Both the position numbers and the translations under genes were made by a program. Shown here piece after piece: positions 3 through 30,249 of a DNA stretch of 33,714 nucleotides (positions are counted from its first letter, which is position 1; the number at the start of each line of letters is the position of its first letter). The notes beneath the pieces were generated by a model. That model ran no database searches, was not told the DNA's origin, and was given only the letters and a program-made list of their open reading frames with translations. The stretch is from an uncultured Anaerolineales bacterium (lineage in GTDB: Bacteria > Chloroflexota > Anaerolineae > Epilineales > Epilineaceae): NCBI GenBank assembly GCA_964498575.1, contig CAZCJG010000003.1, positions 1 through 33,714 on the forward strand. The letters are read 5' to 3'.

Positions 3-1748
3 GGGGGGAGCCTGGATGCCCTGGACATCGCGGTCGACGTCGATGGGCGGGTCTACGTCAACTACGTCCAAAGCGACAACCCAGCCGAGGACGCCTTTCT
101 GGCCGGCATCACGATCTTCCGCGCGGGCCTGTGGGTGTTCGAGGAAGCCACGCTGCCCAAGCAAGCTCCTGACGCCATCGAGCCCGGCGCCTGCGTCGCG
201 GCACCGGACAAGCGGGCGGCGCCGCGGCGCATCCGGCTCGGCGAGACGGTCACGGTCAGCCTCGACGTCGCCGGCCAGTGCCCGGGTGCTTTCGATCCGG
301 CCCAGATCGCCATCTTGCTCGACACCTCGCGGTCGATGGGCGCGTCCAGCACGCTTGAGCGCGCCAAGGAGGCCGTGCTCACCGTCCTCGGCGAGCTCGA
401 CCCGGCCGCGTCCGAGGGGGCGCTGGTTACTTTCGACGACGGCGGCACGCTCGCGGTGCCCTTGACGCGCGACCTCGCCGCCTTGCGCGCCCGGGTGGTC
501 GGCCTCGGCGTGGACGGCGACACGCGCCTGGCGGCCGGCCTGGCCGTCGCGCGCGCCGAGCTCGGCGGTTCCCGGCGCGATCCCGCCGCCCGGCAGGTCA
601 TCCTCGTCGTCACCGACGGCGGCTTCACCGACGAGCCCGAGGCCGAGATCCGGCGCGCCGAGGCCTCCGGCATCGAGGTCCGGGCGCTCGTACTCTCGAA
701 CGATTGGATCGACGGCGGTCCGGACACCTCTCGCCTGGCGGGACTGCTCGGCACTCCCGGCGCGGTGCTCTACGATCCCGGCGAGGAGCTGCTGCGCCGC
801 CTGGCGCGCGAGCTGGCGCGGTTCCAGGCCCAGGACGGCCTGTTCGATACGATCACCATCGACGACGAGGTCCCCGCCAACATGCGCTACGTCCCCGGCT
901 CGGCCAACCCACCGGCGGTCTACGACGCCACGCGCCGCATCCTCACATGGACCCTCGCCGACATCCCGGCCGCCGCGGGGGTCAAGCTGGGCTACAAGCT
1001 GATCCCCCAGGAATGCGGCCTCTGGCCGACCAACGTGCAGGCCACCGCGGACTACCGCGACGCCCTCGGCAACCCCGGTCAACTGGTCTTCCCGATCCCC
1101 GAGGTCGACGTGCTCTGCGCGGACTATCGCCTCTACCTGCCCTTCGCCGCCGAGCGCGCCTGCTTCCGCCCGAGCCGGCCGATCGACGCGGTGCTGGTGC
1201 TGGACGCGTCCAGCAGCATGGACGAGGTCGAAGGCGGCGGCGGCTCGCGGACCAAGCTCCAGGCGGCGCAGGCGGCGGCCGGGGCCTTCGTGGACCTGAT
1301 GGAGCTGCCGGGCGACCAGGTCGGCGTGGTCGCCTTCAACCACGGCGCGGCGCGGGTGACCGGGCTGAGCGGCGATCGGGCGCGCGTGCGCGAGGCGCTG
1401 GCAGGGCTGACGACCGCGAGCGGCACCCGGATCGACCTGGGGCTGGCGGAGGCGGCCGGCGTGCTGGCGGACGGGCGGCGGGCAGGCGCGCAGCCGGTGG
1501 TGATCCTCTTGACCGATGGTCTGCAAAACCAGGCGGAAGCACCCGACGCGGAAGTGCTGGCGCGGGCGGAGGTCCTGAAGTCAGCCGGCGCGCTGGTCTA
1601 CACCATCGGCCTGGGCGGGGAGATCGACCGCGAGTTGTTGCGGGGGGCGGCCACCTCGCCGGACCGCTACTACGAGTCGCCCTCCGCCGCGGAGCTGGAG
1701 GCCATCTACCGCGCCATCTCGGCGCGGTTGTGGTGCGAGGTGCGGTGA
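3..1748 (+). CDS. Exported NHL-repeat / double-VWA surface protein, 5' end cut by the window edge (paralog of 1794..5531)
   Basis: The frame is open from nt 3. Residues before the GTG at 135 (GGSLDALDIAVDVDGRVYVNYV...AGLWVFEE) align with the NHL-to-VWA junction of the next protein (TLDALDIAVDVDERVYINFV...AGLWVFEPE). There are two VWA domains with MIDAS DxSxS motifs (LLDTSRSMG, VLDASSSMD). They are separated by a DUF11-like segment (ITIDDEVPANMRYVPGS...LTWTLADI). Stop TGA at 1746-1748. Confidence 0.8.
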   Translation, partial: GGSLDALDIAVDVDGRVYVNYVQSDNPAEDAFLAGITIFRAGLWVFEEATLPKQAPDAIEPGACVAAPDKRAAPRRIRLGETVTVSLDVAGQCPGAFDPAQIAILLDTSRSMGASSTLERAKEAVLTVLGELDPAASEGALVTFDDGGTLAVPLTRDLAALRARVVGLGVDGDTRLAAGLAVARAELGGSRRDPAARQVILVVTDGGFTDEPEAEIRRAEASGIEVRALVLSNDWIDGGPDTSRLAGLLGTPGAVLYDPGEELLRRLARELARFQAQDGLFDTITIDDEVPANMRYVPGSANPPAVYDATRRILTWTLADIPAAAGVKLGYKLIPQECGLWPTNVQATADYRDALGNPGQLVFPIPEVDVLCADYRLYLPFAAERACFRPSRPIDAVLVLDASSSMDEVEGGGGSRTKLQAAQAAAGAFVDLMELPGDQVGVVAFNHGAARVTGLSGDRARVREALAGLTTASGTRIDLGLAEAAGVLADGRRAGAQPVVILLTDGLQNQAEAPDAEVLARAEVLKSAGALVYTIGLGGEIDRELLRGAATSPDRYYESPSAAELEAIYRAISARLWCEVR

Positions 1749-1793
1749 TCTACCGTAAGGCTTTGCGATCCAAGGTATCCAACGCGAGGTGAG

Positions 1794-4700
1794 ATGATGA
1801 AACAGCGACGGTCGGCTCTGGTGATCGGGATCGCGGCGTGCATCCTCGCCGGATCAGGCGCGCTGCCGCTGGCCGCCGCCCCGCCGGACCAGGCGATCGC
1901 CCCCGGCGGCCTGACCTACCGCCTTGCCGACACCTGGACCGACCAGCCCTGGCAGCCCGAGGCCGGGCGCTTCGGGCGGGTGCGCGACATCAGCTCGGCG
2001 CCGGACGGGACGATCTTCGTGTTGGACGTGACGCATGGCTTCGTGCATGTGCTCGCGCCCGACGGCACGCCCTTGCGCTACTTCGGCGTGCCCGACACCA
2101 ACCAGGGCCGCGGCGCCGATCCCTGGCTGGCCTGCAACATGGACGTCGGCTTCGACGGGTTGGTCTACGTGCTGAGCAAGCAGATCGACCATCCGGACCT
2201 GTGCGGCTACGGCGCCGCGCGCGTCGACCGGCTGGCGCCGGATGGGCGGCTCCTGGCGCGGCTGGACGTCGATCCCGCCCAGCGCTTCCTCTACGCCGAC
2301 CTGGCCGTCCACCCCGACGGGCGGCTCTACCTCAGCCGCTTCGGCGCCGACGGCGAGCCCTTGACCCTGGACGGCCCGCGCGCGGTCGACGTCTTCAGCC
2401 CGGATGGCGAGCTGCAAGTCTCGCTCAGCCCGCCCGAGCTGGGCATGCCCGGCGCGATCGACGTCGGGGAGGACGGCAGGGCTTACGTCGTCAACCGCGT
2501 GCCCGATGCCGGCGCGTCGGTTCCCGGCATCCCGGACCCGACGCCGCGGCCGTCCCTGCTCGGGGCGGACGGTCGGGACCGGGCGCTCGCCCGGGAGGAG
2601 GACCAGGATCGAGCGCCCGCACAAGCGGAGGGTCCGGATCAAGCGGCGACCCCGATCGAAGGCGTCCTGATCCTCGATCCCGACCACCGCTACCGCGAGA
2701 CCGTGCCCTTCGTCAACGCGCGCGACGTCGCCGTCGGCCCGGCCGGGGTCTTCGTGTCGCGCGACTCCGACATTTACCCCTTGCGCGAGCGCGAGCCGGT
2801 CTTCGCCGGTCCCGCCGGCTACTACGGCACGGGCATGCGGCTGGACGTGCCGGTGGATGGCCGGGTGCTGGCCGGGATGAACCACTGCTACTTCCAGGGC
2901 CTGGTCGAGATCGCCGACCCCCGCGGCCGGCCGGCGGCCGGGCGCTACCTCGGCCGGCTGGACAAGCCGGACCTGGAGGGACCGGTCTTCCCCTTGCGCA
3001 TGGCGGCCTCCGAAGAGATCGCCGTGCTGCAAGGCGCCTTCGACGTCTGGGGCGAGCGCCCGCACCTCGAGTACAGCACCGCCCTGGAAGCCGAGCAGCC
3101 GCAAACCGTGCAGCGCTGGACCCGGCGCGGCGTTCCGGCGGGCGGCAGCGCGATCGCGCCGCCTCCCGGCCGTCCCGACCCACCCGGCAGTCCCAGCCCA
3201 CCTGCCGCGGGCGACGGCGGGCGCGGGCGACTGGCCGCGCAGCTCGGGCTTTGCGGCGGCTGGTCCGCCCGGCCGACCCACGACGTGGCGATCGACGGCC
3301 GCGACGTGTACACCGTCGATGCCTTCGCCGTCCAGCGCCGGCCGGACGACCTGCCGCCGGCCTGGACCCTGGTGCCGGAGATCGTGGTCGAGCCGGATTC
3401 CAGCGCCTTCCTCTCCGCCATCGCCGCCGACCAGGGGCGGGTGGCGGTGCTGGACAGCGGGGGAAACCGGGTGATCATGGCGGACCGGAGCGGCGCCGTG
3501 GTCGCCACCTGGGACATCGCCGGCCCGGCAACGGGCAGCCTGCCGGTCGACCTCGCGATCTCGGCGGCGGCGGGGCGGGTCTACCTGGCCGACCAGGGCG
3601 CCAGCCGCATCCTGGTACGCGGACTGGACGGGTCGGACCTGGGCGAGTGGCCGACGCATGACGGGCCTCTGCGCGTCGCGCTCGGCCCGTCGGGCGACGT
3701 CTTCGTGCTCGGCCGCGGCGGCTGGGGCTTCCGCTATCGGGCGGACGGCCGCCTGGTCGCCGCCTGGCCGATGCCCGATCGCACCCTCGACGCGCTGGAC
3801 ATCGCGGTCGACGTCGACGAGCGGGTCTACATCAACTTCGTCGATCGCGGCCTGGGCGCGCCCAACCTGTGGTCCGGCTCGGGCGGCTTCGACATCTTTC
3901 ACGCCGGGCTGTGGGTGTTCGAGCCGGAGGCCTTGCCGGCCTCACCCGCGCCGGCCGCCGGCGCCTGCGTCGCCGTGCCCGACAAGCGCGCCGCGCCGCG
4001 CCGCATCCCTCTGGGCGCGACGGTCGAGATCACGCTGAGCGTCGAGGGAACCTGTCCCGGAGTCTACGACCCCGTGCAGCTCGCCCTGGTCGTCGACACC
4101 TCGCGCTCGATGGGTATGGACGACGCCCTGACCCGCGCCCGCCGCGCGGTGCTGGCCCTGCTCGGCGCGCTGGACCCGCGCGCCGCCGAGGTTGCGCTGG
4201 TGAGCTTCAGCGACGGCGGGACGCTCGAACTTCCGCTGTCCAGCAATCTCACCGACATCGGCGCGCGTGTCGCCGGGCTGGCCGCGGACGGCGATTCGCG
4301 CATGGGCGCCGGCCTGGACATCGCCCGCGCCGAGCTGACCGGTCCGCGTGGCGATCCGGCCCGGCGGCGGGTGATCGTCCTGGTCAGCGACGGCGCCTTC
4401 AAGGACCGCCCGCAGTCGGCCGCGGCCCGCGTGCGGGCGGCCGGCATCGAGCTCTACGCCCTGGTCTTCCGCAACATCGAGTTCGACGGCCTGGGGATCG
4501 ACCCGATGCTCGAGCTCGAAGCGATGACCGGCGCGACCGAGCGGGTCCTGCTCGAACCCACCCCGGGCGACCTGACACGCCTGGGGCGCGACATGGTGCG
4601 CTACCAGCCCGAGGAGGGCCTGTTCGAGACGATCAAGATCACCGACGAAGTGCCGGCGAACATGCGCTACGTCGACGACTCGGCGATCCCGCCCGCCCAC

Positions 4701-5531
4701 TTCGACCCCGCGCGCCGCACCCTGACCTGGACCCTGGCCGACATCCTGGCGACTGACGGCCTGCGCCTGCGCTACCACGTGCTGCCGCTGCAAGTCGGTG
4801 TCTGGCCGACCAACGTCCACGCCGAGGCCGACTACCACGACGTGCTGGGCGCGCCGGGCCGCCTGGTCTTCCCGATCCCCGAGGTCGAGGTCACCGGCCC
4901 CGCACACCAGATCTACCTGCCGATCACGGCGGACCATAGCTGCCTGCGCCGCCCGCGCCCGCTCGACGTCGTGCTGGTGATCGACACGTCCAGCAGCATG
5001 AGCGATCCCGCGCCGGGCGGTGGCAGCAAGCTGGACGCGGCGCGCGCGGCGGCCGGGACCTTCGTCGACCTGCTCGACCTGGCCTCGGACCGGGTGGCGC
5101 TCGTCGCCTTCGACGCCGCGGCGCGCCGGGCGGCCGGCCTGACCGGCGATCGCGCCGCGCTGGGACAGGCGCTGTCGCTGCTCGCCACCTTCCGCGGTAC
5201 GCGCATCGACCTGGGCCTGGCCGAAGCCGCGGCGGTGCTGGCCGAAGGCGGCCGGCCGGACGCGACGCCGGCGGTGATCCTGCTCTCGGACGGCCTGCAA
5301 AGCGCGGCGGAGGCGCCTAACGCGGCGGTGCTGGCCCAGGCCGACCGGCTCAAGGCGGCCGGGACCCTGGTCCACGCGATCGGCCTGGGTGACGAGGTCG
5401 ACCGCGAGCTCCTGCGGGCGGTGGCGAGCGCGCCGGACCGCTACCACGAGTCCCCGACGGCGGCGGACCTGGCGGCGATCTACGGCGCGATCTCGGTGCG
5501 GCTGGGGTGTGGCGGGGGGATGGGGCCGTGA
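1794..5531 (+). CDS. Exported NHL-repeat beta-propeller / VWA / DUF11-like / VWA protein (1245 aa)
   Basis: ATGATG start is preceded by the SD GAGGTGAG (1785-1792). The N-terminal signal-like segment MMKQRRSALVIGIAACILAGSGALPLAAAP contains an RR pair. NHL-like repeats are present (GTIFVLDVTHGFVHVLAPDG, GRVAVLDSGGNRVIMADRSG, GRVYLADQGASRILVRGLDG). MIDAS motifs are VVDTSRSMG and VIDTSSSMS. The C-terminal ~540 aa are collinear with the upstream gene product. Confidence 0.85.
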   Translation: MMKQRRSALVIGIAACILAGSGALPLAAAPPDQAIAPGGLTYRLADTWTDQPWQPEAGRFGRVRDISSAPDGTIFVLDVTHGFVHVLAPDGTPLRYFGVPDTNQGRGADPWLACNMDVGFDGLVYVLSKQIDHPDLCGYGAARVDRLAPDGRLLARLDVDPAQRFLYADLAVHPDGRLYLSRFGADGEPLTLDGPRAVDVFSPDGELQVSLSPPELGMPGAIDVGEDGRAYVVNRVPDAGASVPGIPDPTPRPSLLGADGRDRALAREEDQDRAPAQAEGPDQAATPIEGVLILDPDHRYRETVPFVNARDVAVGPAGVFVSRDSDIYPLREREPVFAGPAGYYGTGMRLDVPVDGRVLAGMNHCYFQGLVEIADPRGRPAAGRYLGRLDKPDLEGPVFPLRMAASEEIAVLQGAFDVWGERPHLEYSTALEAEQPQTVQRWTRRGVPAGGSAIAPPPGRPDPPGSPSPPAAGDGGRGRLAAQLGLCGGWSARPTHDVAIDGRDVYTVDAFAVQRRPDDLPPAWTLVPEIVVEPDSSAFLSAIAADQGRVAVLDSGGNRVIMADRSGAVVATWDIAGPATGSLPVDLAISAAAGRVYLADQGASRILVRGLDGSDLGEWPTHDGPLRVALGPSGDVFVLGRGGWGFRYRADGRLVAAWPMPDRTLDALDIAVDVDERVYINFVDRGLGAPNLWSGSGGFDIFHAGLWVFEPEALPASPAPAAGACVAVPDKRAAPRRIPLGATVEITLSVEGTCPGVYDPVQLALVVDTSRSMGMDDALTRARRAVLALLGALDPRAAEVALVSFSDGGTLELPLSSNLTDIGARVAGLAADGDSRMGAGLDIARAELTGPRGDPARRRVIVLVSDGAFKDRPQSAAARVRAAGIELYALVFRNIEFDGLGIDPMLELEAMTGATERVLLEPTPGDLTRLGRDMVRYQPEEGLFETIKITDEVPANMRYVDDSAIPPAHFDPARRTLTWTLADILATDGLRLRYHVLPLQVGVWPTNVHAEADYHDVLGAPGRLVFPIPEVEVTGPAHQIYLPITADHSCLRRPRPLDVVLVIDTSSSMSDPAPGGGSKLDAARAAAGTFVDLLDLASDRVALVAFDAAARRAAGLTGDRAALGQALSLLATFRGTRIDLGLAEAAAVLAEGGRPDATPAVILLSDGLQSAAEAPNAAVLAQADRLKAAGTLVHAIGLGDEVDRELLRAVASAPDRYHESPTAADLAAIYGAISVRLGCGGGMGP

Positions 5532-5538
5532 GTGATTG

Positions 5539-5640: not shown

Positions 5641-8600
5641 CTACTCCCCGTTCCGCGCCACCGGCAGGTAAACCCGAGACCCCACCATCCGGCTGATCTC
5701 CATCCGGTCCAGCATTCGCACGGGCGTGCCCGCGCTGTAGACGGCGTTCGTCAGCGCGATGCGGCTGGCCTGGGGGTGCGGTGTGAGGCGGTAGGTGAAG
5801 GCGGCGCGCGCGCCGCTGCCGACCCGGCCGGCCCAGGCGACGGCGACCGCTTGCTCCGTCGGCACCGCCAGCGCGGCCAATCCGGCCGGGCCGTTCTCGG
5901 CGACCGCGCGGACCACGGCTTCGGGCGAGGCGGCGACCGGCACGGCGCCTCCGGTCACGCTGCCAGTGGCCAGGCTGGCCGCCAGCTCGTCGAAGTCGCT
6001 GTAGAGCGTCAGGGTGTAGGCGCCGCCGGTGTTCGACAGGCTGGCTTCGACGTCCAGGCCCGTCCCATCGGCCCTCGGGACCAGCGATCCGCCGGCCTCG
6101 GCCGCGTCGGCCTGGCGCCAGACGCGGATGGTGCCGGTCGAGCCGTCCGCGGCCTGCCCCATCACCTGGAAGTGGAAGCCGAAGTGGACGCCGTTGTCGC
6201 CGGGGTTGCCGCTGTGCTCGCCGGTGACGTTCGTCCCCGCGCCGCCGCCGAGGTTGACGTAAGCCGGCGTCGCGCCGCGCAGGAACATCGTCTCGTCGCT
6301 GCTGACGTCGGCGCTGGGCGGGCTGGTCTCGCCGCCCAGGCCGGTGAAGCCGGGCGGCGTGCGCGGCGGGTAGTAGCCGGCGGCGGGCACGACCACGCCG
6401 CCGTCGGGATCGGTGAAGGCGTAGCGCTTGATGCGCTGTCGCGTGGCGTCCGACTGCACTGTTATCGGCACCGGCAGGAGCTCCACGCCGGGCAGGTAGC
6501 CTAGGGCGTCGTGGAAGGCGGTCACCGCCGGCAGCGCGGCGTAGCGGGTCGCCGTCATCACCGTCGTGTCGGGCGACTGGGCGCCGGTGGCGAAGGTCAG
6601 CGTCACCGGCGTGGTCGGCGCGAGCGAGAAGGCGCTGTTGGTGGTCTGCACCCGGCCGCGCCAGTTGTCCTCCGGCGGGAAGGGGAAGCTGCCGAAGGCG
6701 TTCTTGAACAGGCTGCCGCGCGGGGCGCGCAGGGGTTCGGGGTGGGCGTCGATGACCAGGAGCCCGCCCTTGGCGCCCTCGCTGGGCAAGGAGGTGAGGT
6801 TGCGGTTGGCCAGGATGTCATTCCTCGGCGAGTTGAGGCCGAAGCGCGTGTCGCGCAGCCACACCACCAGGCCTGGGACGTTGGACTTCACCCAGTCGAC
6901 CAGGAGCTCGCGCTCACCCTTGGCGGTCAGCTCGGCGAAGACCGTGTTGTAGGTGTACTTCAGGCCGAGGTCGAAGTTGACCGCGTTGCGCCATTCCAGC
7001 AGATAGTAGCGCGCGTAGGGCTTGTTGCCGTCCGACAGCCGCCAGCCTTCGTCGGTCCGGGGCGTGCCGCGGAAGGTGCCGGGCGTCGAGGTCCAGCCGT
7101 TCGCGTTGCCACCTTCTACAGGATCGTCGAGCAGCACCTGTCCGCCGGCCTGCACCCGGATGTTGTCGGCGAAGACGCCGCGGCCCTGGGTCCCGTCGTC
7201 GGTGGCGTAGCGCAGCCGGAGCTTGACGGCCCGGCCGGCGAAGGGCGACAGGTCGTGGTAGACGCGCTGCCAGCCCTGGCTGTTGCCGGTGTAGCCGTGC
7301 TTGAGCCCGCCGTAAGCGGCCAAGGCGCCGTTGGCATCGGTGTAGGCGTCGGTCGTGGTTAGCTCCTGGTGCGTTCCGGCCCGGAAGCCCTTGGTCTGCG
7401 TATAGGTCTGCCCGCCGTCGATCGAGACCTCGGCGAAGAAGTAGTCCCAGTTGTTCTCGAGCATGAAGTCGAGCTGGAAGGTCAGCGACACCGGCCCCGT
7501 GACGCCCGACAGGTCCAGCGCGCGCTCCAGGCGGTGGTCCGCCCAGATCTGGCCGTCGCCGCTCCACCAGGCCTGGCGTGAGCCGGGCGGCAGGGTGATG
7601 ATGCGCTCCATCGCCGGCGGGATGTCCACCCGCAGCGCGGGCAGGCTGCCGGCGGGCGGGAGGGCGGCCTGGCCGAGCAGGTAGTCTTCCGGATCGTCGC
7701 CGGGCTGGACCACGACCGGCGCGCCCCAGCCCAGCGCGGTCTTGCCCCAGACACTCATGTGGGTGGGGTCGGCGCCGTTGAGCCGGCCGGTGCGGGCGCC
7801 GACGCTCATCAGGTCCCACCAGGTCACGTCGTCGTCGCCGGTGGTGGTGTACAGGTCGGGCAGGCCGAGGTCGTGGCCGAACTCGTGGACCAGCACGCCC
7901 AGGCTGGAATTCTCGGGCTGGATGGTGTAGCCGATGATCCGCAGGTCGTCGTTGGTGTCCGGCGTGCCGCGATCGTCGACGACGCCGGTGGTGGTGTTCG
8001 GGAAGATCGTGCCGCGGTGCGCCCAGATCTGCTGGTTGCCGTCCACGCCGCCGCCTTCGGACTCGTCGATGCCGGCGTGGAAGATCAGCACGTGGTCGAG
8101 CTCGCGGTCGCGGTCGGTGTCGTAGTCCGCCCAGGGGAAGTCCGGGTCGGCGGTGTTGATCGCGGTGATGATGTCGGCGATCAACGAGGACATGCCGTTG
8201 GGGAAGCGCGGGTTGGTCGGCAGGCCGCTGCCGCCGGGGCCTACGACCCCATTCCGATCGGGCACGCAGGGGTTGGCGGAGTAGTAGCCCACCGAATGCG
8301 GCACCTTGACCCAGGCGATGACACCCTTCGGCCCGCCGTCGAAGGTCACCCGCCCGCCGGAGATCTCACGGTAGAAGGTGGCCATGCTGTGGCCGCTGAT
8401 GTCGATGCCGGGCAGGCCGTCCTCGGGATCGACCAGATCCGGCCGCAGCCGCTCGGTGACGCCCTCCTCCGAGAAGACCATCTTCTCGTAGAAGTCGCGC
8501 TCGAACTTCGGCAGCCAGGTCGTCGCATTGTCGCGCGGGCCGGGGTGAGCGATCTCGTTGTGCAGCGGGCCGGCATACTCCACGGTCTCGGTGACGCACG

Positions 8601-9345
8601 TGCCGCCGGCGCGGATGCCGACCTCATGGCTGAAGTTCTCGACGGTATCCTCCCCGTCGAATTCCACCGCCACCGCGAACAGCTTCAGCGTGCCGGTGAC
8701 GGCCGGGGCGAGGGGGGTGTCCGATCGATTCGCACTCTCGGCTTGGTCGTCCTTCACCCCGCTGCCGCGACCGCCGGCCGCCCCGCCGCCTGAGGTCGCG
8801 TCGAGCCACGCCTGCTCGCGCGCGTAGAGCGCCTCGGCCTTGGCCGGGTCCGGCCCGTGATAGTTGTCCGCCGCCCAGTCGCGCCGGAAGGCCTCCGCCG
8901 CGGCCTCGATCTCGGCCGCGCTGGCGCCCGGCCCGGCGCGCTCGCGGGCGCTCTGATAGACCAGGAACTCGCCGGGCTCGACGTAGCTGATGAACGCGTC
9001 TCCCTTGGCCGGCGCGGCGCGGCCCGGGATCTCGGCCGGGATCGCGGGTGGCGGGACCTCCGGCGGAAGCGGGACCTCCGGCGGGATCTGCGGCGCGAGT
9101 GATCGATCCGGTCCTCGGACGTCGCCGGGAACCCCCGCGGCATGCGCGCTCTCACCGGCGGTCGTCGGCTCCGGCGCGGGCGCCGCTGTCGCCAGGCGAT
9201 GGAGCGAGGCGGTGGCGAGGAGCAGGACGAGGACGGCGGTGGCGCCGGCGGTGAGGAGGGCGGCGCGGCGGGTTGGGGGGGCGGAGCGTAGGGCGGATCG
9301 GCGAGCGGCTCGATGCGGGATCGGGTCGGTGGGCGGGCGGTCCAT
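5641..9345 (-). CDS. M6-family (immune inhibitor A-like) secreted zinc metalloprotease, 1234 aa
   Basis: Carries the HEXXHXXGXXD signature VLVHEFGHDLGLPDLY. The N-terminus has a twin-arginine-like segment followed by a hydrophobic segment (PTRRAALLTAGATAVLVLLLATASL). ATG at 9345 is preceded by the SD AGGAGAG. Stop TAG at 5641-5643. Confidence 0.85.
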   Translation of the reverse strand: MDRPPTDPIPHRAARRSALRSAPPTRRAALLTAGATAVLVLLLATASLHRLATAAPAPEPTTAGESAHAAGVPGDVRGPDRSLAPQIPPEVPLPPEVPPPAIPAEIPGRAAPAKGDAFISYVEPGEFLVYQSARERAGPGASAAEIEAAAEAFRRDWAADNYHGPDPAKAEALYAREQAWLDATSGGGAAGGRGSGVKDDQAESANRSDTPLAPAVTGTLKLFAVAVEFDGEDTVENFSHEVGIRAGGTCVTETVEYAGPLHNEIAHPGPRDNATTWLPKFERDFYEKMVFSEEGVTERLRPDLVDPEDGLPGIDISGHSMATFYREISGGRVTFDGGPKGVIAWVKVPHSVGYYSANPCVPDRNGVVGPGGSGLPTNPRFPNGMSSLIADIITAINTADPDFPWADYDTDRDRELDHVLIFHAGIDESEGGGVDGNQQIWAHRGTIFPNTTTGVVDDRGTPDTNDDLRIIGYTIQPENSSLGVLVHEFGHDLGLPDLYTTTGDDDVTWWDLMSVGARTGRLNGADPTHMSVWGKTALGWGAPVVVQPGDDPEDYLLGQAALPPAGSLPALRVDIPPAMERIITLPPGSRQAWWSGDGQIWADHRLERALDLSGVTGPVSLTFQLDFMLENNWDYFFAEVSIDGGQTYTQTKGFRAGTHQELTTTDAYTDANGALAAYGGLKHGYTGNSQGWQRVYHDLSPFAGRAVKLRLRYATDDGTQGRGVFADNIRVQAGGQVLLDDPVEGGNANGWTSTPGTFRGTPRTDEGWRLSDGNKPYARYYLLEWRNAVNFDLGLKYTYNTVFAELTAKGERELLVDWVKSNVPGLVVWLRDTRFGLNSPRNDILANRNLTSLPSEGAKGGLLVIDAHPEPLRAPRGSLFKNAFGSFPFPPEDNWRGRVQTTNSAFSLAPTTPVTLTFATGAQSPDTTVMTATRYAALPAVTAFHDALGYLPGVELLPVPITVQSDATRQRIKRYAFTDPDGGVVVPAAGYYPPRTPPGFTGLGGETSPPSADVSSDETMFLRGATPAYVNLGGGAGTNVTGEHSGNPGDNGVHFGFHFQVMGQAADGSTGTIRVWRQADAAEAGGSLVPRADGTGLDVEASLSNTGGAYTLTLYSDFDELAASLATGSVTGGAVPVAASPEAVVRAVAENGPAGLAALAVPTEQAVAVAWAGRVGSGARAAFTYRLTPHPQASRIALTNAVYSAGTPVRMLDRMEISRMVGSRVYLPVARNGE

Positions 9346-21371: not shown

Positions 21372-21387
21372 GGTGGTCCTCCCCTTT

Positions 21388-21627
21388 TCAGGTGTCACAA
21401 TCCGGTCCGCCGACGTCCATCCGCTCCCGGGACGACGCGCGGGTCGCCTCGATCAGGCCTGCGCTCGGAAGCTGATAGACCCGCTCCACATCGCTCAAGG
21501 TGCAAAACCGCGCCATCGGGCAACCGACGCACGCCAGGCGCAGCGCCAAGAACGCTTGAATGGTCGCGGGCCAGGCCCGCAGGACGGTTTCGACGGTCAT
21601 ATCCCTCGATGGGCTGGCCGGCTCCAT
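21388..21627 (-). CDS. DUF1858 / ScdA-N-like redox-disulfide (CxxC) small protein, 79 aa
   Basis: DMTVETVLRAWPATIQAFLALRLACVGCPMARFCTLSDVERVY matches the DUF1858 pattern (MTVxxVLxxxPxxxxxFxxxxxxCxGCPxA). ATG at 21627 is preceded by AAGGAAGGTGG. Its TGA stop lies 16 nt upstream of the nosZ ATG. Confidence 0.7.
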   Translation of the reverse strand: MEPASPSRDMTVETVLRAWPATIQAFLALRLACVGCPMARFCTLSDVERVYQLPSAGLIEATRASSRERMDVGGPDCDT

Positions 21628-22711: not shown

Positions 22712-25060
22712 TCAGCGTGGCATGGCCGGCGCGCCGAGCTCGGCGGGCGGCAGCCGAGCGGGATCGTAGCCATAGCGGATCAGCGTCGACCAGTCGCCGG
22801 TGAGCCACACGGTGCGTCTGCCGTCCAGGGCGCTGGCGACGTCGATGTCGTGGATCGCGACGTTGACCGTCGTCGCCTCCGACCATGCCTGGCCGTCGAA
22901 GTGCAGCACCGTGCTCATCATCGGCTGGCCGTCGCCGCACGCGATCCGATCGCTGAAGCGACGCTCGCGGCCACAGCGCGCCACCACCCAGATGTCGTCA
23001 GGGGCGGCCACGGCCAAGTTGACGAGCTGCGCGCCCGATCGGAGCAGGTTCTCGCCGCTCCGGCCCGTCAGCGCCGGGACGGGGCACCAGCCCAGGCCGT
23101 CGTTGCGGGCGACGCCTTGGGCACCGGCAACCCACACCGACCCATTGTCCAGCGCACTGACCGCGATGGCGTCAGGGGTGATCGGGCTGTTCGCAAGGCT
23201 GCAGACCTGCCGGCCCGTGCCCCCGGTATCGCACCAACACGCGGGCCGCGCCCCGCCGCAAGCCGCCGAGATCAACAAGCTGGCGCGGTCGCCGACCACC
23301 CACACATCGCCTTGGGCGGTCGCCGTCAGCGCATTCCAGTGGCCCGCGCCCGCCTGTGGCCCGAGCGCCTGCTCGCGCCAGGCCCCGGCCGCCTGGTCGA
23401 ACCACCAGACCTGGCGCCTGCCGGTGTCGTTCTCGGAGATCGCCCAGGCCATGCCGGCCGGCGAGACCGTGACGTCGACGAAGCGCGGCTGGCCCGCTTC
23501 GGGCAGTTGGAAGGCGCGCGGCCGATCCAGCGGGCCGCGCAAGCGCAGGCTCACCCCGCGTTCGCCCACCACCCAGGTGTCGCCGCCGCCGCTGGCGAGT
23601 GCGCGCATCGGCGCGGCGGCCAAGGCCGGGTCCAGATCGGCATCGAGCGGTAACGCCTGGAAGAGCTGATCGCCCAGCCGGGTGAACAGGCCCGCGCCTT
23701 GATCGGAGCTGGCCAGGAGCCAGCCAAAGCCTGCCTGGGGGACGAAGTCGACGAAACGATGGCGTTCGCTAACCCGCGTCCAGGCTTCGCTGGCGCGATC
23801 GAACCACCATACCTGCTCACCCCAGGCGTAGAGCACGCCCGCGCCGGGCCCTTGCATCCCGGCCTCGCCGGCCGGCACCGCGGCGATGGCGCTGCTGCCG
23901 TCGATCCCGAGGTCGTCCTCGGCGTAGGGCGACGGACCGTAGGCGGTCCACTCGCCGGTGTCGCCGTCGCGCTGGTGCAAGACCGCGCGGCCGGGCAGGG
24001 GGGAGACCCCTACCCAGATCTCGGTGCCCGGCACCTGGTAGGCATCGACCAGGGCATGGCCCGCCCAATCCTTGGCCGGGGATTGTTCGTCAAGACCCCA
24101 GGCTTCCGCTTCGGCGTCCCAGACCCAGCCAAGCACCGCCGAGCCGTCCCAGCGCTCGCCGAAGGCCCAGCCTTCGCTGTTGTCGCGCCCGAAGATCAGC
24201 TCACGCGGCCAGCCGGAGCCATCGGTTTGCCGAATGGACCACGTGCTATCCCGGCCGGTGCGCAGGAAGACGCCCTCGCGCCGCTCGAGGTTGGAACCGA
24301 CCGCCCAGGCGCGCGGCATCTCTCCAAAGGCGTCGGGGTGGGGATCGAAGGCGACATCGGTGAGCAGCGGCGCCAGCTTGGCAACGTCGCTGTGGTCCTG
24401 CCAGCCGGCCGGGGTAAGCTGGTGCACGACGGCGAGATCCGATCCGCTGCGGCCGACCGCCCAGCCTACCGGCACGCCGTTGTAAGGGATGATCCGGATC
24501 GACAGCAGCTCGACGTCGACGTAGCGATGCTGGAGAGGATGCGCCCGCCAGCAGCCGGCGCGCAGCTCGGGCGTCTGGCCCTGGTCGCCGGCGGCCCAGC
24601 CGACGGCTCCGCCCGAGCCCGTTTCGACATAGGCGGCGTTCAGCCCTGTCAGCTCCTGGCCGATCTGGGGCACCCAACCCGCCCGACCCCCACGGCCGGC
24701 GCCGGCCGCGCCCAGCGCGCCGCGATCAGGACGCCAGCGCGCCACCCCATCCCCTACGGCGATGACCGTTCCCTCGCCGTCCCCGAGCGCGAAGAGGTCA
24801 CGGATTCGCCCCATGCCACCACAAACCGCGGTCCAGCCCTCGCCGCCCGGGCAGGTTTCGGGCACGGCCGGGCCGCAGGGTTCGGCGGCCAGCGTGCCCA
24901 CGTAGGGCAGGAACAGCGGATGCTCGCGCGCCGCCGGCACCGCCACCGGGGTTTGCGCTCGCGCGGACGTCGGCGCGAGCGCCAGGGTCAGACCGAGAAG
25001 CAGACAATGCGCTGCGCAGATCTGCGTCAGGTGGGCTGCCGGCTTGAGTCGTCCGTCCAT
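22712..25060 (-). CDS. Secreted beta-propeller-like protein (recurring xWxxG blades), function unknown, 782 aa
   Basis: Has the signal peptide MDGRLKPAAHLTQICAAHCLLLGLTLALAPTSARA. Blade-end motifs recur about every 45-60 aa (GWAAGDQG, GWAVGRSG, AWAVGSNL, TWVVGERG, VWVVGDRA, VWVAGAQG, VWLTGDWS). The start lies 3 nt after the upstream stop. Confidence 0.7.
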   Translation of the reverse strand: MDGRLKPAAHLTQICAAHCLLLGLTLALAPTSARAQTPVAVPAAREHPLFLPYVGTLAAEPCGPAVPETCPGGEGWTAVCGGMGRIRDLFALGDGEGTVIAVGDGVARWRPDRGALGAAGAGRGGRAGWVPQIGQELTGLNAAYVETGSGGAVGWAAGDQGQTPELRAGCWRAHPLQHRYVDVELLSIRIIPYNGVPVGWAVGRSGSDLAVVHQLTPAGWQDHSDVAKLAPLLTDVAFDPHPDAFGEMPRAWAVGSNLERREGVFLRTGRDSTWSIRQTDGSGWPRELIFGRDNSEGWAFGERWDGSAVLGWVWDAEAEAWGLDEQSPAKDWAGHALVDAYQVPGTEIWVGVSPLPGRAVLHQRDGDTGEWTAYGPSPYAEDDLGIDGSSAIAAVPAGEAGMQGPGAGVLYAWGEQVWWFDRASEAWTRVSERHRFVDFVPQAGFGWLLASSDQGAGLFTRLGDQLFQALPLDADLDPALAAAPMRALASGGGDTWVVGERGVSLRLRGPLDRPRAFQLPEAGQPRFVDVTVSPAGMAWAISENDTGRRQVWWFDQAAGAWREQALGPQAGAGHWNALTATAQGDVWVVGDRASLLISAACGGARPACWCDTGGTGRQVCSLANSPITPDAIAVSALDNGSVWVAGAQGVARNDGLGWCPVPALTGRSGENLLRSGAQLVNLAVAAPDDIWVVARCGRERRFSDRIACGDGQPMMSTVLHFDGQAWSEATTVNVAIHDIDVASALDGRRTVWLTGDWSTLIRYGYDPARLPPAELGAPAMPR

Positions 25061-25063
25061 GGC

Positions 25064-25867
25064 TCAGGGCGGGGGTGGATCGGTCGGCGTCTCGGGCGGG
25101 GGTGGATCGGTCGGGGGCCGGGTGACGGTCGGCAGCGGGCCTGTCGGAACAATCGCCGTGCTGGTCGCCGCGGGGACGATGGCCGGAGGGAAGGTCGGCG
25201 GTGCCTCCGTTGCTGTGGGCGATGCCGGCGCGTCGGTCGGCGCGGGCGGCGCCGTCGGCGTCGCCGAGGCCGGGCTCTCGGACTTCTCGTTCGGCGGGCG
25301 GGACTGCGGCACGACGACGGCCGGTGCTGGGCTTGCCTCGATCGTCGCCGTCGCGAGCGGCACCGGTGCCTGGACGAGCACCGACTCGCGCGCGCCGGTC
25401 GGCGCGGCTTCGGCGAGCTCGGCGGGCTCGGCCGCTTCCCTCCTGTCGTCGGGCGCGGCTGCCGGCGCCTTGCTCGGCACGGCAGGCGGCGCCTTTACCC
25501 CCGCGACTGCCGGCTCGTCCGGCACAGGGCGCAGGGCCATCGGTGTGGGAAGCGCCGTCCGGTCGTCGGCTGCGGGCGCGCCGCCCGGCCAAGGTCGGAT
25601 CGACACGCTGTTCAACCCCACCCAGGTGAGCGCCACCAGGCTGATGAGCACGCCGGCGGTCCATGCCAGGCCGCGCGGGACAACCAGCGCCCGGCCCCTC
25701 GGCAGCGGCAGGCGCCAGCCGGGCGGGGTAGGCGGGCGTGCCAGAAGGTCGCGCCGTAGCCCGGCGCGGAACTCCGGCCGCGGCAGCACCGGCTCGCCCT
25801 GTCCGAAGCGCTCGGCCAAGGGGTCGGCCCCCCCGCTGCGCGGCTCAGGCCGAGGCGACCGGGACAC
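25064..25867 (-). CDS. Putative single-pass anti-sigma factor with a Pro/Ala/Thr-rich extracytoplasmic tail
   Basis: The call rests on position: the GTG start overlaps the 3' end of the ECF sigma gene by 23 nt. There is one TM helix (LAWTAGVLISLVALTWVGL) and a low-complexity C-terminus ending PPTDPPPPETPTDPPPP. A 21-nt direct repeat occurs at 25067-25087 and 25094-25114. No zinc-binding anti-sigma (HxxxCxxC) motif is present. Confidence 0.5.
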   Translation of the reverse strand: MSRSPRPEPRSGGADPLAERFGQGEPVLPRPEFRAGLRRDLLARPPTPPGWRLPLPRGRALVVPRGLAWTAGVLISLVALTWVGLNSVSIRPWPGGAPAADDRTALPTPMALRPVPDEPAVAGVKAPPAVPSKAPAAAPDDRREAAEPAELAEAAPTGARESVLVQAPVPLATATIEASPAPAVVVPQSRPPNEKSESPASATPTAPPAPTDAPASPTATEAPPTFPPAIVPAATSTAIVPTGPLPTVTRPPTDPPPPETPTDPPPP

Positions 25868-26390
25868 GCGAGTCTCCTTCCAGGCGCAGGCGCAGCCGTT
25901 CGCGGGCGCGGTGCAGCCGCTTGTGGACCGCCGCCGGCGTGCAGTCGAGAATGTCCGCGATCTCGGGCGGGGTCAGCCCGGCATAATAGAACAAGCTCAA
26001 GATCTCCTGATCGGCGCCCGGTATCTGGGCCAGCGCCGCCTCGAGCGCGGCGCGCTCGTCGACCCGGCGCTCCGGCTGCGTCGGCGCATGGCCGGGCCCG
26101 AAGGGCACGAGCTGCCACAGCCGCCCCTTGCGATGGTGGTTGGCCACCAAGTTGCCGGCGATGCGATAGAGCCACGCGACGAAGGGCACGCCACGAATCT
26201 CGTAGCGCTCGATGGCGACCAAGGCGCGCTCCCAGACCGCGCTGGCAAGATCCTCCGCGGTTGCCTGGTCGCCGACCCGGCGCGCGACGTAACGGTAGAT
26301 CGCGTCGAAGTGTCGATCATACAAGACGCCGAACGCCTGCCGATCGGTGCGGGCGGCGTCGACCAGCCAGTCCTCGTCATAGTTGGGCAT
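25845..26390 (-). CDS. ECF-type RNA polymerase sigma-70 family factor (182 aa from ATG 26390)
   Basis: Region 2 is FGVLYDRHFDAIYRYVARRV...FVAWLYRIAGNLVANHHR. Region 4 is EILSLFYYAGLTPPEIADILDCTPAAVHKRLHRARERL. The longer 235-aa form would overlap the divergent rhodanese gene, so it was not used. Confidence 0.85.
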   Translation of the reverse strand: MPNYDEDWLVDAARTDRQAFGVLYDRHFDAIYRYVARRVGDQATAEDLASAVWERALVAIERYEIRGVPFVAWLYRIAGNLVANHHRKGRLWQLVPFGPGHAPTQPERRVDERAALEAALAQIPGADQEILSLFYYAGLTPPEIADILDCTPAAVHKRLHRARERLRLRLEGDSRVPVASA

Positions 26391-26397
26391 CCGCTGA

Positions 26398-26403
26398 CTA
26401 TTA
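26398..26403 (-). promoter_or_regulatory. -10-like TAATAG 7 nt upstream of the ECF sigma ATG (leaderless candidate)
   Basis: Plus-strand ctatta at 26398-26403 reads TAATAG on the minus strand. A 7-nt spacer separates it from the ATG at 26390, with no SD. Confidence 0.25.
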
Positions 26404-26492
26404 ACACGCGTCGGCGCCAAAATGGACAGCCCCGGGTCAAAATCCGGTTCCGGAAGCCGACCTCCGCTCGCGCGCGCCGCCATGCGGTGGAG

Positions 26493-26498
26493 TATAAT
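26493..26498 (+). promoter_or_regulatory. Consensus TATAAT 6 nt upstream of the rhodanese ATG (leaderless candidate)
   Basis: TATAAT at 26493-26498, ATG at 26505, and no SD in between. No good -35. Confidence 0.4.
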
Positions 26499-26504
26499 CC
26501 GATC

Positions 26505-26849
26505 ATGTCCGAGAAACAAGCTGCTTCCCCGTTCCAGATCCTGACCGTCCACGAGTTATCCAACCGCCGGGCGCGCGGCACGGCGCCGCGCATCATCGAC
26601 GTCCGCGAGCCATATGAGTGGTCGATCGCCCGTCTCGCCGACACCGAGCTCAAGCCGCTCAGCGAGATCAGCCGCTGGTGGCGCGAGCTCGACCCGGCCG
26701 AAGAGATCGTGTTCTACTGCCACCACGGCGTCCGCAGCGCCAACGTCTGCCGCGCGCTGGCCGCCGAGGGCTTCTCCCGGCTTTACTCGCTTGAGGGCGG
26801 CATCGACACCTGGGCGGCCGAGATCGACCCGGGGATGGCGCGCTATTAG
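26505..26849 (+). CDS. Single-domain rhodanese-like sulfurtransferase, 114 aa
   Basis: IIDVREPYEW...IVFYCHHGVRSANVCRAL carries the active-site loop CHHGVRS. Confidence 0.85.
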   Translation: MSEKQAASPFQILTVHELSNRRARGTAPRIIDVREPYEWSIARLADTELKPLSEISRWWRELDPAEEIVFYCHHGVRSANVCRALAAEGFSRLYSLEGGIDTWAAEIDPGMARY

Positions 26850-26918
26850 GAGCCGCACCGGGGATCGTCCGGCTGGCCGCGTGACAAGCGCCGGCGCGCT
26901 GCTGGGTCATCGACCGAC

Positions 26919-28328: not shown

Positions 28329-28416
28329 CCCTTGCTCGAATCGCCCAAGCTCCGTCTGGTTGCCTCCGCCCTCGCCCCAAGCAACCCCTCACCCCCTAGT
28401 CAGGAGACCTCGAACG

Positions 28417-30249
28417 ATGATGAACACACCCTTGCACCGGCGCCGCGCCGCGCCCGGCCGACACGCCCTCGCCGCGGGCCTGACGACCCTGGCGGCCGCG
28501 GTCGCCGCCGCGCTCGTGATCGCGGCCGCGATCACGCCAGGTCGGCCGCCGGTCGCCGCGGCGCCGGATCAGACCGGCCAGAGCTACTTCCTGCCTAACG
28601 TGCAATCCAGCGGGTTCCGCTCCCTCGCCGGCCTGCTCGACGCCGAGGGGCTGACCGGCATGTCCGGCTTCGGCGACACGACGATCGAGCTGCAGAACCT
28701 GGCGGCGCAGGCGGCGACGGTCGATATCAACCTGGCCAACCTGGAAGCCACGCGCAACCTCAAGCGGCAGGTGGCGGCGCGCGGCAGCGCCACGATTGTC
28801 CTGAAATCGGAGTCAGCCGTCGCGCTCGGCAGCCACAGCGCGCGAATTGCGAGCAACGCGCCGCTCGGCGTGATCGCGCGCACCACCTGGGCCGGCGGCG
28901 CCGAGGTGGCGTACGAGGCGCCCGAGGCGGCGCGCGAGCTGATCCTGCCCCTGATGGCGCGCAACGTGCTCTCGCATACCACCAGCTTCTACATCCACAA
29001 CACCAGCGGGTCGGACGAGGTGAACCAGGTCAAGCTCAACATCTTCGACGACACGAACGGCGAGCTGCTCAAGGACATCATCGTCGATCTCGATCCCTTC
29101 GGCGTCGCGGATTACGACCCCTATGTCGATCCACCGCGGTTTGGGGACCTGCCGGCCAACGCCTCCGGCGGCGGCTTCGTCGGGGCGATCCGCTTCAGCG
29201 CGGACGCGCCGGTGGCGGTGCTGGCCTACGGCGACGAGCTGGACCTGGACAGCCGCGGCTCGGCGGCCTATGTCGCCCGGCCGGTGGCCGCGGCGAGCAA
29301 CCATCAGTACCTGCCGCTGGTGCGGGCCAACTACTTCGGGGATTCGTGGATCGGCATCGCCAGCCGCGAGACCACGCCGATCTCGGTGAAGGTCACCTAC
29401 CGCGGTGCCGCCGATAGCCCGGCCGGCGCGGGGCAGGTCTTCGAGCAGAGCTTCGAGATCGGCCGGCGCGGCGCAGCGTTCGTCGATCTGAGTGGCCGTG
29501 GCCGCGGCACGCGCCCGGCGCCCGGCCTGCCGCGCGGCGCCGCCACCAACCGCGGCTTCTACGGCAGCGCGGTGATCGAGGCCAACGGCCGCGTGCTGGC
29601 GGCGGTGGTGCAGTCGACCTATCCCAACGCCGCCGTGATCACCAGCACCACCAGCGCGGCCTACAACGCCTTCGGCGCCGCCGACCTCGGCACGCGCTTC
29701 GCGCTGGCCAAGGTGCGCTACGGCGCCGCGGCCGGGGCGACCAAGACCGAGCTGGCGGTGATGAATCCCGGGACGGATGCCGCGAACGTATCGATCGCCT
29801 ACAACGATCCCGGCCAACCTGTCGCGGGGCCGAGCGCCGCCATCCCGGCCGGCGCCATGCGGATTATCGCGCTGGAGGCCAAGGGCGCGGACAAGCCGGC
29901 GACGATCACGTCGGACGTCCCGGTCGCGGTGCTGGTCAACGACACGGCGACGACCTCGAGCAACTGGCTGATGCCGAGCCACGACACGTCGATCTACTGG
30001 CCGGTGCGCCTGTCCGGGGCGGTCACCCCCAGCCCGACGCCGACCGGCGGCGCGACGACGGCCGCGCCCCCAAGCCCGACGCCGACCGCCACCGCCACGG
30101 CGACGGCGCAGGTCTCGACGGCCACGGCCACCGCAACCTCACCCACGTTGACCCCGACACCCGTGACGCCGACCGTGGCGCCGACCACCGCTGGCACGCG
30201 GCTCAAGGTCTTCCTTCCCGTAGGGTATCGCAACGAGAAGGTGCGCTGA
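28417..30249 (+). CDS. Exported protein with four ~115-130 aa internal repeats, a Thr/Pro-rich linker and a short C-terminal FLPV tail; function unknown
   Basis: ATGATG at 28417 is preceded by the SD GGAGA (28403-28407). The N-terminus has RRR followed by a hydrophobic anchor. The first three repeats open with YFLPNV, LILPLM and QYLPLV. Each contains a TTxxhxN strand and a GFxGxAxhxxxxPh strand. The linker is TPSPTPTGG...TPTPVTPTVAPTT. The protein ends LKVFLPVGYRNEKVR. Confidence 0.75.
   Translation: MMNTPLHRRRAAPGRHALAAGLTTLAAAVAAALVIAAAITPGRPPVAAAPDQTGQSYFLPNVQSSGFRSLAGLLDAEGLTGMSGFGDTTIELQNLAAQAATVDINLANLEATRNLKRQVAARGSATIVLKSESAVALGSHSARIASNAPLGVIARTTWAGGAEVAYEAPEAARELILPLMARNVLSHTTSFYIHNTSGSDEVNQVKLNIFDDTNGELLKDIIVDLDPFGVADYDPYVDPPRFGDLPANASGGGFVGAIRFSADAPVAVLAYGDELDLDSRGSAAYVARPVAAASNHQYLPLVRANYFGDSWIGIASRETTPISVKVTYRGAADSPAGAGQVFEQSFEIGRRGAAFVDLSGRGRGTRPAPGLPRGAATNRGFYGSAVIEANGRVLAAVVQSTYPNAAVITSTTSAAYNAFGAADLGTRFALAKVRYGAAAGATKTELAVMNPGTDAANVSIAYNDPGQPVAGPSAAIPAGAMRIIALEAKGADKPATITSDVPVAVLVNDTATTSSNWLMPSHDTSIYWPVRLSGAVTPSPTPTGGATTAAPPSPTPTATATATAQVSTATATATSPTLTPTPVTPTVAPTTAGTRLKVFLPVGYRNEKVR

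Follow-up and report, generated by a model that had tools for sequence, protein, structure and literature searches.

Why should five different exported proteins encoded on one stretch of DNA share the same short Leu-Pro motif, in two of them at the very end of the polypeptide chain? The question is raised by a contig of an uncultured Anaerolineales bacterium of the phylum Chloroflexota (GenBank assembly GCA_964498575.1, contig CAZCJG010000003.1, positions 1 to 33,714), in which a first-pass annotation had listed eight copies of the motif and treated them as a single recurrent element. The window, i.e. the whole stretch of 33,714 nucleotides, is contig C3 of an assembly that comprises 4.65 Mb in 519 contigs, has a GC content of 70% and is about 70% complete. 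Translation recovers all eight copies at the positions given by the annotation, but according to AlphaFold models two kinds of element had been pooled, namely three structural β-strands and five linear tags. The five tags are very probably diverged members of the YLP-box, a motif already catalogued by NCBI, so that the window is a rediscovery that adds diverged members to a known family. The new contribution of this genome is evidence for a tag that tolerates different positions, is unfolded and combines in a modular way with VWA domains.

Tags and structural strands in the window

The five tags are located in five carrier proteins, four of which have signal-peptide-like N-termini, the fifth being cut by the contig end. 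This truncated carrier is the 3' part of a VWA-VWA paralog (positions 3..1748, plus strand; identified by translation and by Pfam VWA/VWA_2 matches with E values of 1e-32 to 1e-36), and its box LYLPF (1131..1145), followed by AAERAC, marks the boundary between a β-sandwich region and the C-terminal VWA domain. On the same strand, a 1245-amino-acid (aa) exported NHL-repeat protein with two VWA domains (1794..5531; Pfam matches and a signal-peptide-like N-terminus) contains IYLPI (4911..4925), followed by TADHSC and abutting the C-terminal VWA domain at about 4965-5477. In both junction boxes a Cys is the sixth residue past the pentamer. The other three tags are terminal. A 1234-aa exported M6 (immune inhibitor A-like) metalloprotease on the minus strand (5641..9345; Pfam Peptidase_M6, InhA-like_MAM and InhA-like_VEG, NCBIfam TIGR03296) ends in VYLPVARNGE (5644..5673), directly followed by the stop codon, and a 610-aa exported protein on the plus strand (28417..30249) terminates in the tag VFLPVGYRNEKVR (30208..30246), likewise followed by the stop codon. 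A 782-aa exported protein on the minus strand (22712..25060; identified by translation, nine homologs), which had been referred to as β-propeller protein and for which no Pfam family was matched, carries LFLPYV (24899..24916) 15 residues past an ARA/Q signal-peptidase-like site, with a Cys 8 residues further on. The start of its gene is overlapped by a long TTG-started open reading frame (ORF) with a C-terminal rhodanese domain (25044-26849, plus strand), the real start of which probably lies much further downstream as its first approximately 100 residues are Gly/Val-rich and of low complexity.

All five tags retain the core h-[YF]-L-P-h (h, hydrophobic residue), with a degraded hydrophobic/basic continuation, i.e. 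in VYLPVARNGE, VFLPVGYRNE, LFLPYVGTL, IYLPITADH and LYLPFAAER the hydrophobic-hydrophobic-Arg part past L-P is lost. On a position matrix trained on 124 tags from outside the window (median 19.5 bits, tenth percentile 13.9 bits) four of the copies score between 15.4 and 16.9 bits (LYLPF 16.0, IYLPI 16.5, the M6 tail 16.9 and the 610-aa tail 15.4); the diverged N-terminal copy of the 782-aa protein reaches only 7.9. Only about 1.7e-5 of cytoplasmic positions reach such scores, and about 0.08 such matches would be expected across the approximately 4,470 residues of the five carriers.

The assignment to the YLP-box is based on these scores, on orthology for the three terminal tags, and on paralog alignment for the two junction boxes. 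In Sec-exported proteins of Chloroflexota the YLP-box is a linear motif of about 8-10 residues, for which NCBIfam has two models, both titled 'YLP-box putative sorting motif-containing protein': sort_motif_YLP (NF050076) with 11 positions and a cut-off of 15 bits, and ultrashort_CTERM (NF053834) with 10 positions and a cut-off of 10 bits. Homologs of all three terminally tagged proteins carry recognizable copies: the tail of the M6 homolog P0046 (TLFLPLIMRRK) scores 13.7 bits on NF053834 and 13.2 bits on the other model, the tail of the 610-aa homolog P0018 (RVFLPLVLRGVTIRAR) 12.8 bits on NF053834 and 14.8 bits on NF050076, and the N-terminus of the 782-aa homolog P0062 (HPIYLPLVQRL) 14.7 and 14.5 bits, respectively. 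Thus, all three lie above the cut-off of NF053834 and just below that of NF050076. The junction boxes are linked to the family not by homolog scores but by paralog alignment and by a canonical copy from the same genome (the C45 cassette, IYLPLVIRE, ...ADIYLPLVIREKC...), which scores 14.4 and 14.2 bits on the two models. Moreover, the homologs derive from metagenome-assembled genomes (MAGs) of Anaerolineales, Caldilineae and Ardenticatenales, i.e. from Chloroflexota lineages, which also assigns the window's organism to this phylum. A point against the assignment is that the window copies, submitted as whole proteins or as peptides of 24-60 aa, gave no NCBIfam YLP match at E <= 10, a search in which the HMMER filters drop most short weak matches. 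A six-frame search of the genome with the two models yielded 7 and 3 matches (E <= 10) as compared to about 130 tags by a context-aware count, and the models also matched 10-11 of 14 control genomes; they can therefore not be used to count tags. In full-text searches of the accessible literature we found no paper on the YLP-box, nor one on YLPL in connection with Chloroflexi.

The terminal tags are conserved in position within their families. Among M6 homologs, named from Ardenticatenales, Ardenticatenia, Chloroflexales and Anaerolineae, 34 of 35, down to 41% identity, terminate in h-[YFWL]-[LMV]-P plus 4-10 residues (19-24 residues in two cases), and a distant relative with 31% identity lacks the tag. 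In this family the tag directly follows the last folded domain without a Thr/Pro linker. All nine homologs of the 782-aa protein, down to 29% identity, have h-[YFH]-L-P-h behind the signal peptide. In the 610-aa family (13 members, down to 30% identity) the linker that precedes the tail is free in length and sequence, while the tail keeps [VI]-[YF]-L-P-x-x-x-[RK] with L and P at least 90% conserved (homologs down to 34% identity); tail-tagged homologs occur in named Anaerolineales, Caldilineae and Ardenticatenales MAGs, and the single homolog without the linker is also without the tag. As had been suggested earlier, the M6 protease and the 610-aa protein, which are unrelated to each other, each bear a genuine orphan tag at the extreme C-terminus.

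The 610-aa protein also contains the three copies that we do not regard as tags. The AlphaFold model, built on the family alignment (mean predicted local distance difference test score, pLDDT, 77.8), consists of a signal peptide, four β-sandwich domains, a Thr/Pro/Ala-rich linker (30019..30207, alignment columns about 720-795, pLDDT below 40) and the C-terminal tag. YFLPNV (28585..28602) is predicted to form the first β-strand of domain 1 (strand 56-64, P60 invariant), LILPLM (28939..28956) that of domain 2 (strand 172-182, P178 invariant) and YLPLV, within QYLPLV (29308..29322), that of domain 3 (strand 294-304; P300, R303 and N305 invariant), the latter two with block-mean pLDDT values of about 90-97. 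Domain 4 opens with RFALAKV rather than with an L-P strand. On the tag matrix the three copies score -1.8, 10.6 and 2.9 bits, respectively. In Foldseek, single domains of the protein are matched to TM1070 and to the Anabaena sensory rhodopsin transducer (ASRT) with a probability of 1.00 and target TM-scores of 0.57-0.75 over 89-124 columns. As no Pfam family matches the protein, the predicted membership in this group holds at the fold level only, and the repeats, too, are seen only in the predicted structure, the sequence-level internal repeats not being significant (best BLAST E value 0.05). In the models, the three internal copies thus are integral first strands of TM1070/ASRT-like domains that merely happen to share the x-L-P-h signature with the tags. 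Accordingly, the proposal that the motif acts as first strand of a repeated domain holds for these three copies and fails for the other five, which are flanking tags predicted to be unstructured.

Placement of the box across the genome

As had been proposed from the window, the motif does not occur at random and is a specific feature of exported proteins. Among 3008 ORFs, predicted genome-wide by a home-made caller that reads the frame signature of GC at third codon positions (GC3), the strict motif [VIL][YF]LP[VILFY] occurs 122 times as compared to 29.1 ± 5.9 times after within-protein shuffling, with raw counts being inflated by paralogs. Exported-like and cytoplasmic-like proteins were separated by a simple Kyte-Doolittle hydropathy heuristic, and signal-peptide classes and gene starts are likewise heuristic. 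On this basis exported-like proteins contain 104 copies (13.3 expected), whereas cytoplasmic-like proteins, in which a similar frequency would have refuted the first-pass annotation, show no excess (18 copies, 15.6 expected). An enrichment at C-termini, for which the same annotation had proposed a test, is also found, i.e. the last 25 residues carry the motif in 51 of 2678 complete C-termini as compared to 2.4 ± 1.6 in shuffled sequences, and a second sharp peak is located 190-210 residues from the C-terminus.

A wider pattern gives 188 matches genome-wide, with three sharp contexts. The box occurs 40-85 residues from the N-terminus, right behind the signal peptide; 190-215 residues from the C-terminus, abutting a C-terminal VWA domain (about 57 cases), mostly behind a Thr/Pro linker; and 3-12 residues from the C-terminus (51 C-termini). 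A tag-class box is present in 83 of 694 exported-like proteins (about 12%), and about 4% of the genome's genes are tagged. Despite the inflation of raw counts by paralogs, BLAST groups the 124 tagged protein bodies into 57 clusters, of which 45 are singletons. According to Pfam, the tagged proteins include NHL/PA14 proteins, LVIVD propellers and a subtilase (S8); an M6 protease and a β-helix-like repeat protein also carry the tag.

The consensus is similar in all three contexts, [IVLA]-[YF]-L-P-[LIV]-[AL..]-[L..]-[RK], and may best be described as h-[Y/F]-L-P-[L/I/V]-h-h-[R/K], often with a few more basic residues after it. Past L-P, the 129 tags read [LIV]-[ALVG]-x-[RK] and lack T-G. The flanks depend on the context: C-terminal tags have R/K at position -1, whereas boxes ahead of VWA domains have Pro at positions -1 and -3. 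The C-terminal tails past the pentamer mostly comprise 3-12 residues, 24% of which are Lys or Arg (9.5% genome-wide), and in the C-terminal tags examined no transmembrane helix follows the box, in line with the earlier statement that the motif lacks the hydrophobic helix of sortase and exosortase signals. Upstream of the box, the fraction of Thr, Pro and Ser over 40 residues is 0.59 before VWA cassettes and 0.38 at C-termini, compared to 0.18 genome-wide. N-terminal boxes lie 4-15 residues past AxA/Q-type sites read by eye and are often followed by a Pro-rich stretch, so that the N-terminal layout (signal peptide, spacer, box, Pro-rich stretch) mirrors the C-terminal one (linker, box, short tail).

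The junction boxes of the window belong to a cassette, i.e. Thr/Pro linker, YLP-box, Cys, VWA domain and Cys, which is found in at least 57 proteins of the genome, a very large expansion given that the genome is only about 70% complete. The VWA domains of the window match Pfam PF00092 and PF13519 (E values 1e-31 to 1e-36). In an alignment of 31 of the cassettes the invariant residues comprise L23 and P24 of the box, C31 past it, C220 close to the C-terminus and D45, S47 and S49 of the metal-ion-dependent adhesion site (MIDAS) D-x-S-x-S; LYLPF aligns to the invariant L-P...C position. In the AlphaFold model of the window's C-terminal VWA cassette, built on the 31 paralogs, the VWA fold is predicted with pLDDT values of 94-98, whereas the first 30 residues including the box form a coil with pLDDT values of 52-65. 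Thus, the box is modelled outside the VWA fold and is not packed on the VWA domain. Residues that are invariant and yet predicted to be unstructured suggest a short linear motif that is read by something else rather than a strand of the VWA fold. By analogy with von Willebrand factor A domains, whose ends are stapled by a Cys pair, the Cys past the box and the one at the C-terminus probably have the same role here. A Cys is present at both ends of the VWA domain in 48 of 50 complete cassette proteins. Some cassette proteins terminate in a second small motif, W-x-G-G-R in 13 cases, and 9 end in W-P. In four cassettes (contigs C107, C190, C219 and C279) the main box is preceded, at a distance of 10-12 residues, by a second, degenerate one, e.g. 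...DAHFPIALREAAPPPLYLPLALVEAC... and ...VHMPVVLREAPPGPLYLPLLVREQC....

The tag is not bound to one end of the polypeptide chain. Among the members of one cluster of LVIVD-propeller paralogs, four carry it at the C-terminus, one at the N-terminus and another one ahead of a VWA domain; in the largest paralog cluster the box continues into a VWA domain in 37 members, and 5 members stop just past it. One protein of 2070 aa has a tag at both ends. Because paralogs differ in the end that is tagged and in the VWA continuation, the box is the constant element, and its position and the VWA module are interchangeable. The linkers and spacers adjoining the tags are not conserved, while the tags themselves are conserved in position in the M6, 610-aa and 782-aa families and in the VWA cassettes. 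According to the models, the box is displayed in an unfolded state at the edge of the mature protein. Since about one eighth of the exported-like proteins, among them proteases, propellers and adhesins of the VWA type, bear this one tag, it probably has a central part in the way in which these bacteria build their surface.

Possible readers of the box

The envelopes of filamentous Chloroflexota, which abound in activated sludge, sediments and hot springs, are poorly understood. We propose that the YLP-box is a docking or retention peptide that tolerates changes in position and orientation and is not a sortase-type signal, a reading that we consider to be about evenly poised between right and wrong and that we favour because it fits all three placements, N-terminal, in front of a VWA domain and C-terminal. 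The box, located on a flexible tether, would be bound by a component of the multilayered Chloroflexota envelope, and the bound box would keep diverse hydrolases and adhesins on the filament surface; it would not serve as substrate of a sortase-type transpeptidase that works on membrane-held substrates. More specifically, and only tentatively, the box may be a retention tag of about 8 residues that needs neither a transmembrane helix nor a folded domain, is placed at either end or before an add-on VWA domain and is bound by a non-enzymatic envelope receptor, which would hold the approximately 12% of exported-like proteins that carry the tag. The occurrence of the tag at either end, the optional VWA continuation and the predicted disorder argue for such a peptide-binding receptor. 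In the cultured Caldilineae member Litorilinea aerophila, cryo-tomography revealed a cytoplasmic membrane, a peptidoglycan-like layer, an inner layer, a shared outer layer and a lattice-like protein layer (PMC13319060), i.e. an envelope of this kind would offer several possible docking layers.

Several points weigh against a docking peptide. No binding partner was identified, and we infer both the binding and the surface retention; the gene neighbourhoods in the window and those of the M6 gene in two relatives gave no candidate reader either. The basic residues past the box recall the charged tail of cleaved sorting signals, and the NCBI curators titled both models sorting motifs. The disorder predicted by AlphaFold fits a site for a protease or transpeptidase just as well as a docking peptide. 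Finally, gene starts and signal-peptide classes rest on heuristics, and an automated estimate that takes the first AxA puts the gap in front of N-terminal boxes at about 11-45 residues. Direct insertion of the box into the membrane interface was considered as a further means of retention and rejected, since our own Wimley-White estimate for IYLPLVLR, about -1.6 kcal/mol, seems too weak to anchor a large protein.

The titles chosen by the curators point to the most serious rival, a true sorting or processing signal whose L-P core is recognized by an extracytoplasmic protease, a transpeptidase or a class-F-like sortase. Such an enzyme would cut inside the box or behind it, with possible transfer of the protein to a polymer of the wall or envelope; at a junction box, the cut would free the VWA module and leave the C-terminal end seen in those paralogs whose chain stops at the box. 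In its L-P core and its later basic residues the box resembles the start and the end of LPXTG-type signals, and the genome encodes five sortase-family proteins, for which only 2-3 canonical substrates (LPXTG, helix and basic tail) were found; 1-5 such genes are also present in each of 21 relatives, and one of the five adjoins the gene of the tagged subtilase (contig C102). Nevertheless, there is no membrane-spanning segment that would hold the substrate, the positions equivalent to T-G are not conserved, and boxes are found at mature N-termini as well and, in one family of paralogs, at either end; C-terminal transpeptidation at an N-terminal box would discard the whole protein. Two of the five sortase genes lie near a tagged gene, which is within chance if about 4% of the genes are tagged, and sortases are universal also in lineages without a known box. 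A sorting signal is hence, in our view, an unlikely but serious explanation, and the sortases themselves were rejected as readers, being present but at odds with the chemistry of the motif and its N-terminal placements, with an adjacency that does not exceed chance. The five genes are located at C16:550-978, C339:3794-4210, C1:14897-15322, C218:2502-2921 and C102:9311-9742; judged by eye, four encode class-F-like proteins (active-site region ...TCDG.WD...), one of which has an N-terminus of the lipoprotein type (LLVGCASD). The canonical substrates, obtained by scanning for C-terminal helices, are LPKTG on C20, LPTTG on C53 and perhaps LPHSG on C132.

As another rival explanation, the box might be a β-strand that completes a β-sandwich, either in cis as in TM1070/ASRT-like domains or in trans by insertion into an incomplete domain, and indeed the three internal copies of the 610-aa protein are predicted first strands with an invariant Pro, the pattern x-[YL]-L-P-h-h suits a strand, and the tags sit on flexible terminal linkers like the donor strands of chaperone-usher and type V pilus subunits. 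However, each of the four domains in the model of the 610-aa protein has a first strand of its own, which speaks against the donor-strand completion suggested by the first-pass annotation, and the linker and the orphan tail (residues 535-610) are disordered (pLDDT 33-39) and not predicted to dock back onto their own protein. Furthermore, the box is not packed on the VWA domain, no domain lacking a strand was found as acceptor, the internal strands remain far below the tag median on the tag matrix, and the four domains are barely alike in sequence. We therefore regard strand donation as improbable. An even smaller likelihood is assigned to a glycosylation mark, i.e. to the box being no anchor but a docking site or boundary for the modification of the adjoining Thr/Pro stalk, e.g. 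by O-glycosylation through a PMT-like GT-C transferase. This would explain why a Thr/Pro-rich stretch very often abuts the box, and a PMT_2 gene is located directly upstream of the tagged M6 gene, but next to the box a Thr/Pro linker is missing in the M6 family and in many further tagged proteins, and the adjacency of the PMT_2 and M6 genes is missing in two relatives. The possibility that a hydrophobic tetrapeptide is simply common in a proteome encoded at 70% GC is practically nil: the motif is short and about 40 of the 188 matches to the wider pattern look like background, lying in membrane helices or cytoplasmic proteins, but the excess is 4- to 8-fold over shuffled sequences, 20-fold at C-termini and absent from cytoplasmic-like proteins, and the position of the box is conserved in four families. 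Chance and composition were ruled out by these controls.

Neighbouring genes and known systems

The rest of the window consists of ordinary genes of metabolism and regulation, and none of them is a candidate reader of the tag. They encode a PMT_2 glycosyltransferase, an AMP-dependent ligase, a pterin dehydratase/glyoxalase-like protein, YjeF, a carboxylesterase, a Sec-type nitrous-oxide reductase (NosZ), a Crp-family regulator, a rhodanese-domain protein, a chorismate-binding enzyme, a two-LysM protein, an amine oxidase and uroporphyrinogen decarboxylase (HemE). The PMT_2-family protein (9621-11726, minus strand) is a 701-aa multi-pass membrane protein similar to dolichyl-phosphate-mannose protein mannosyltransferases of the GT-C type; its gene has the same orientation as the M6 gene that follows it, and the protein could glycosylate Thr/Pro linkers. 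In two relatives the neighbours of the M6 gene are not conserved. The nitrous-oxide reductase (19290-21398, minus strand; nos_propeller and cupredoxin/COX2 domains) has a lipoprotein-like signal peptide, ...LLLPAVILGCRRQ, and the gene of the Crp-family regulator lies downstream of it (21915-22670). The small exported protein with two LysM domains (30418-31026, minus strand) is possibly a peptidoglycan-binding envelope protein; each domain closes in a conserved GQCL[VY]IP with Cys, and a YLP-box is absent. A 291-aa ORF without Pfam match (18234-19109, plus strand) lies in a region of locally lower GC content (65%) and contains a short internal duplication, REGQRVLTDGQRVLTEKV.

Among the known systems, the LPXTG/sortase signal of Gram-positive bacteria (PF04203) resembles the YLP-box in its L-P core, the Pro/Thr stalk and the terminal basic residues, and sortase genes are present in this genome. 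LPXTG substrates have a scissile Thr-Gly (or Thr-Ala/Asn) pair and a hydrophobic segment with a basic tail in a strictly C-terminal position, whereas the YLP-box has neither T-G nor a hydrophobic segment, is followed by a tail of 3-12 residues at C-termini and also occurs N-terminally or in front of a domain. The systems PEP-CTERM/exosortase, PGF-CTERM/archaeosortase, GlyGly-CTERM/rhombosortase and MYXO-CTERM share with it the use of a short signature on many unrelated exported proteins of one lineage. According to a preprint (bioRxiv 10.1101/2023.06.07.544157), the four signals need a transmembrane helix and a basic cluster and are strictly C-terminal. The tripartite organization of PEP-CTERM, PGF-CTERM and GlyGly-CTERM signals, i.e. 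motif, helix and Arg/Lys cluster, differs from the helix-free YLP-box. A single protein with a tripartite look of the PEP-CTERM type was seen in the genome, the 937-aa product of an ORF that starts at position 8924 of contig C70 and terminates in ...PPEVPEAST-LALLAAGLAGLAGWV-GLRRRRSD.

The donor strands of chaperone-usher and type V pili are similar in being short hydrophobic strands on a flexible terminal extension. Here, in contrast, an acceptor domain lacking a strand was not found, and the AlphaFold models of the 610-aa protein and the VWA cassette leave the tag disordered. The TM1070/ASRT fold (PDB 1nc7, 2ii7-2ii9) is matched by the domains of the 610-aa protein and accounts for its three internal motifs, although these domains are only 12-24% identical to it in sequence and occur as four tandem exported copies that are followed by a linker and a YLP tag. 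The closest counterpart is the YLP-box of NCBIfam itself, which agrees with the window tags in the core h-[YF]-L-P-h-h-h-[RK], the phylum, the exported surface proteins and hydrolases that serve as carriers and the ultrashort, helix-free tail. The window differs in that two of its tags are internal junction copies and one is N-terminal rather than C-terminal.

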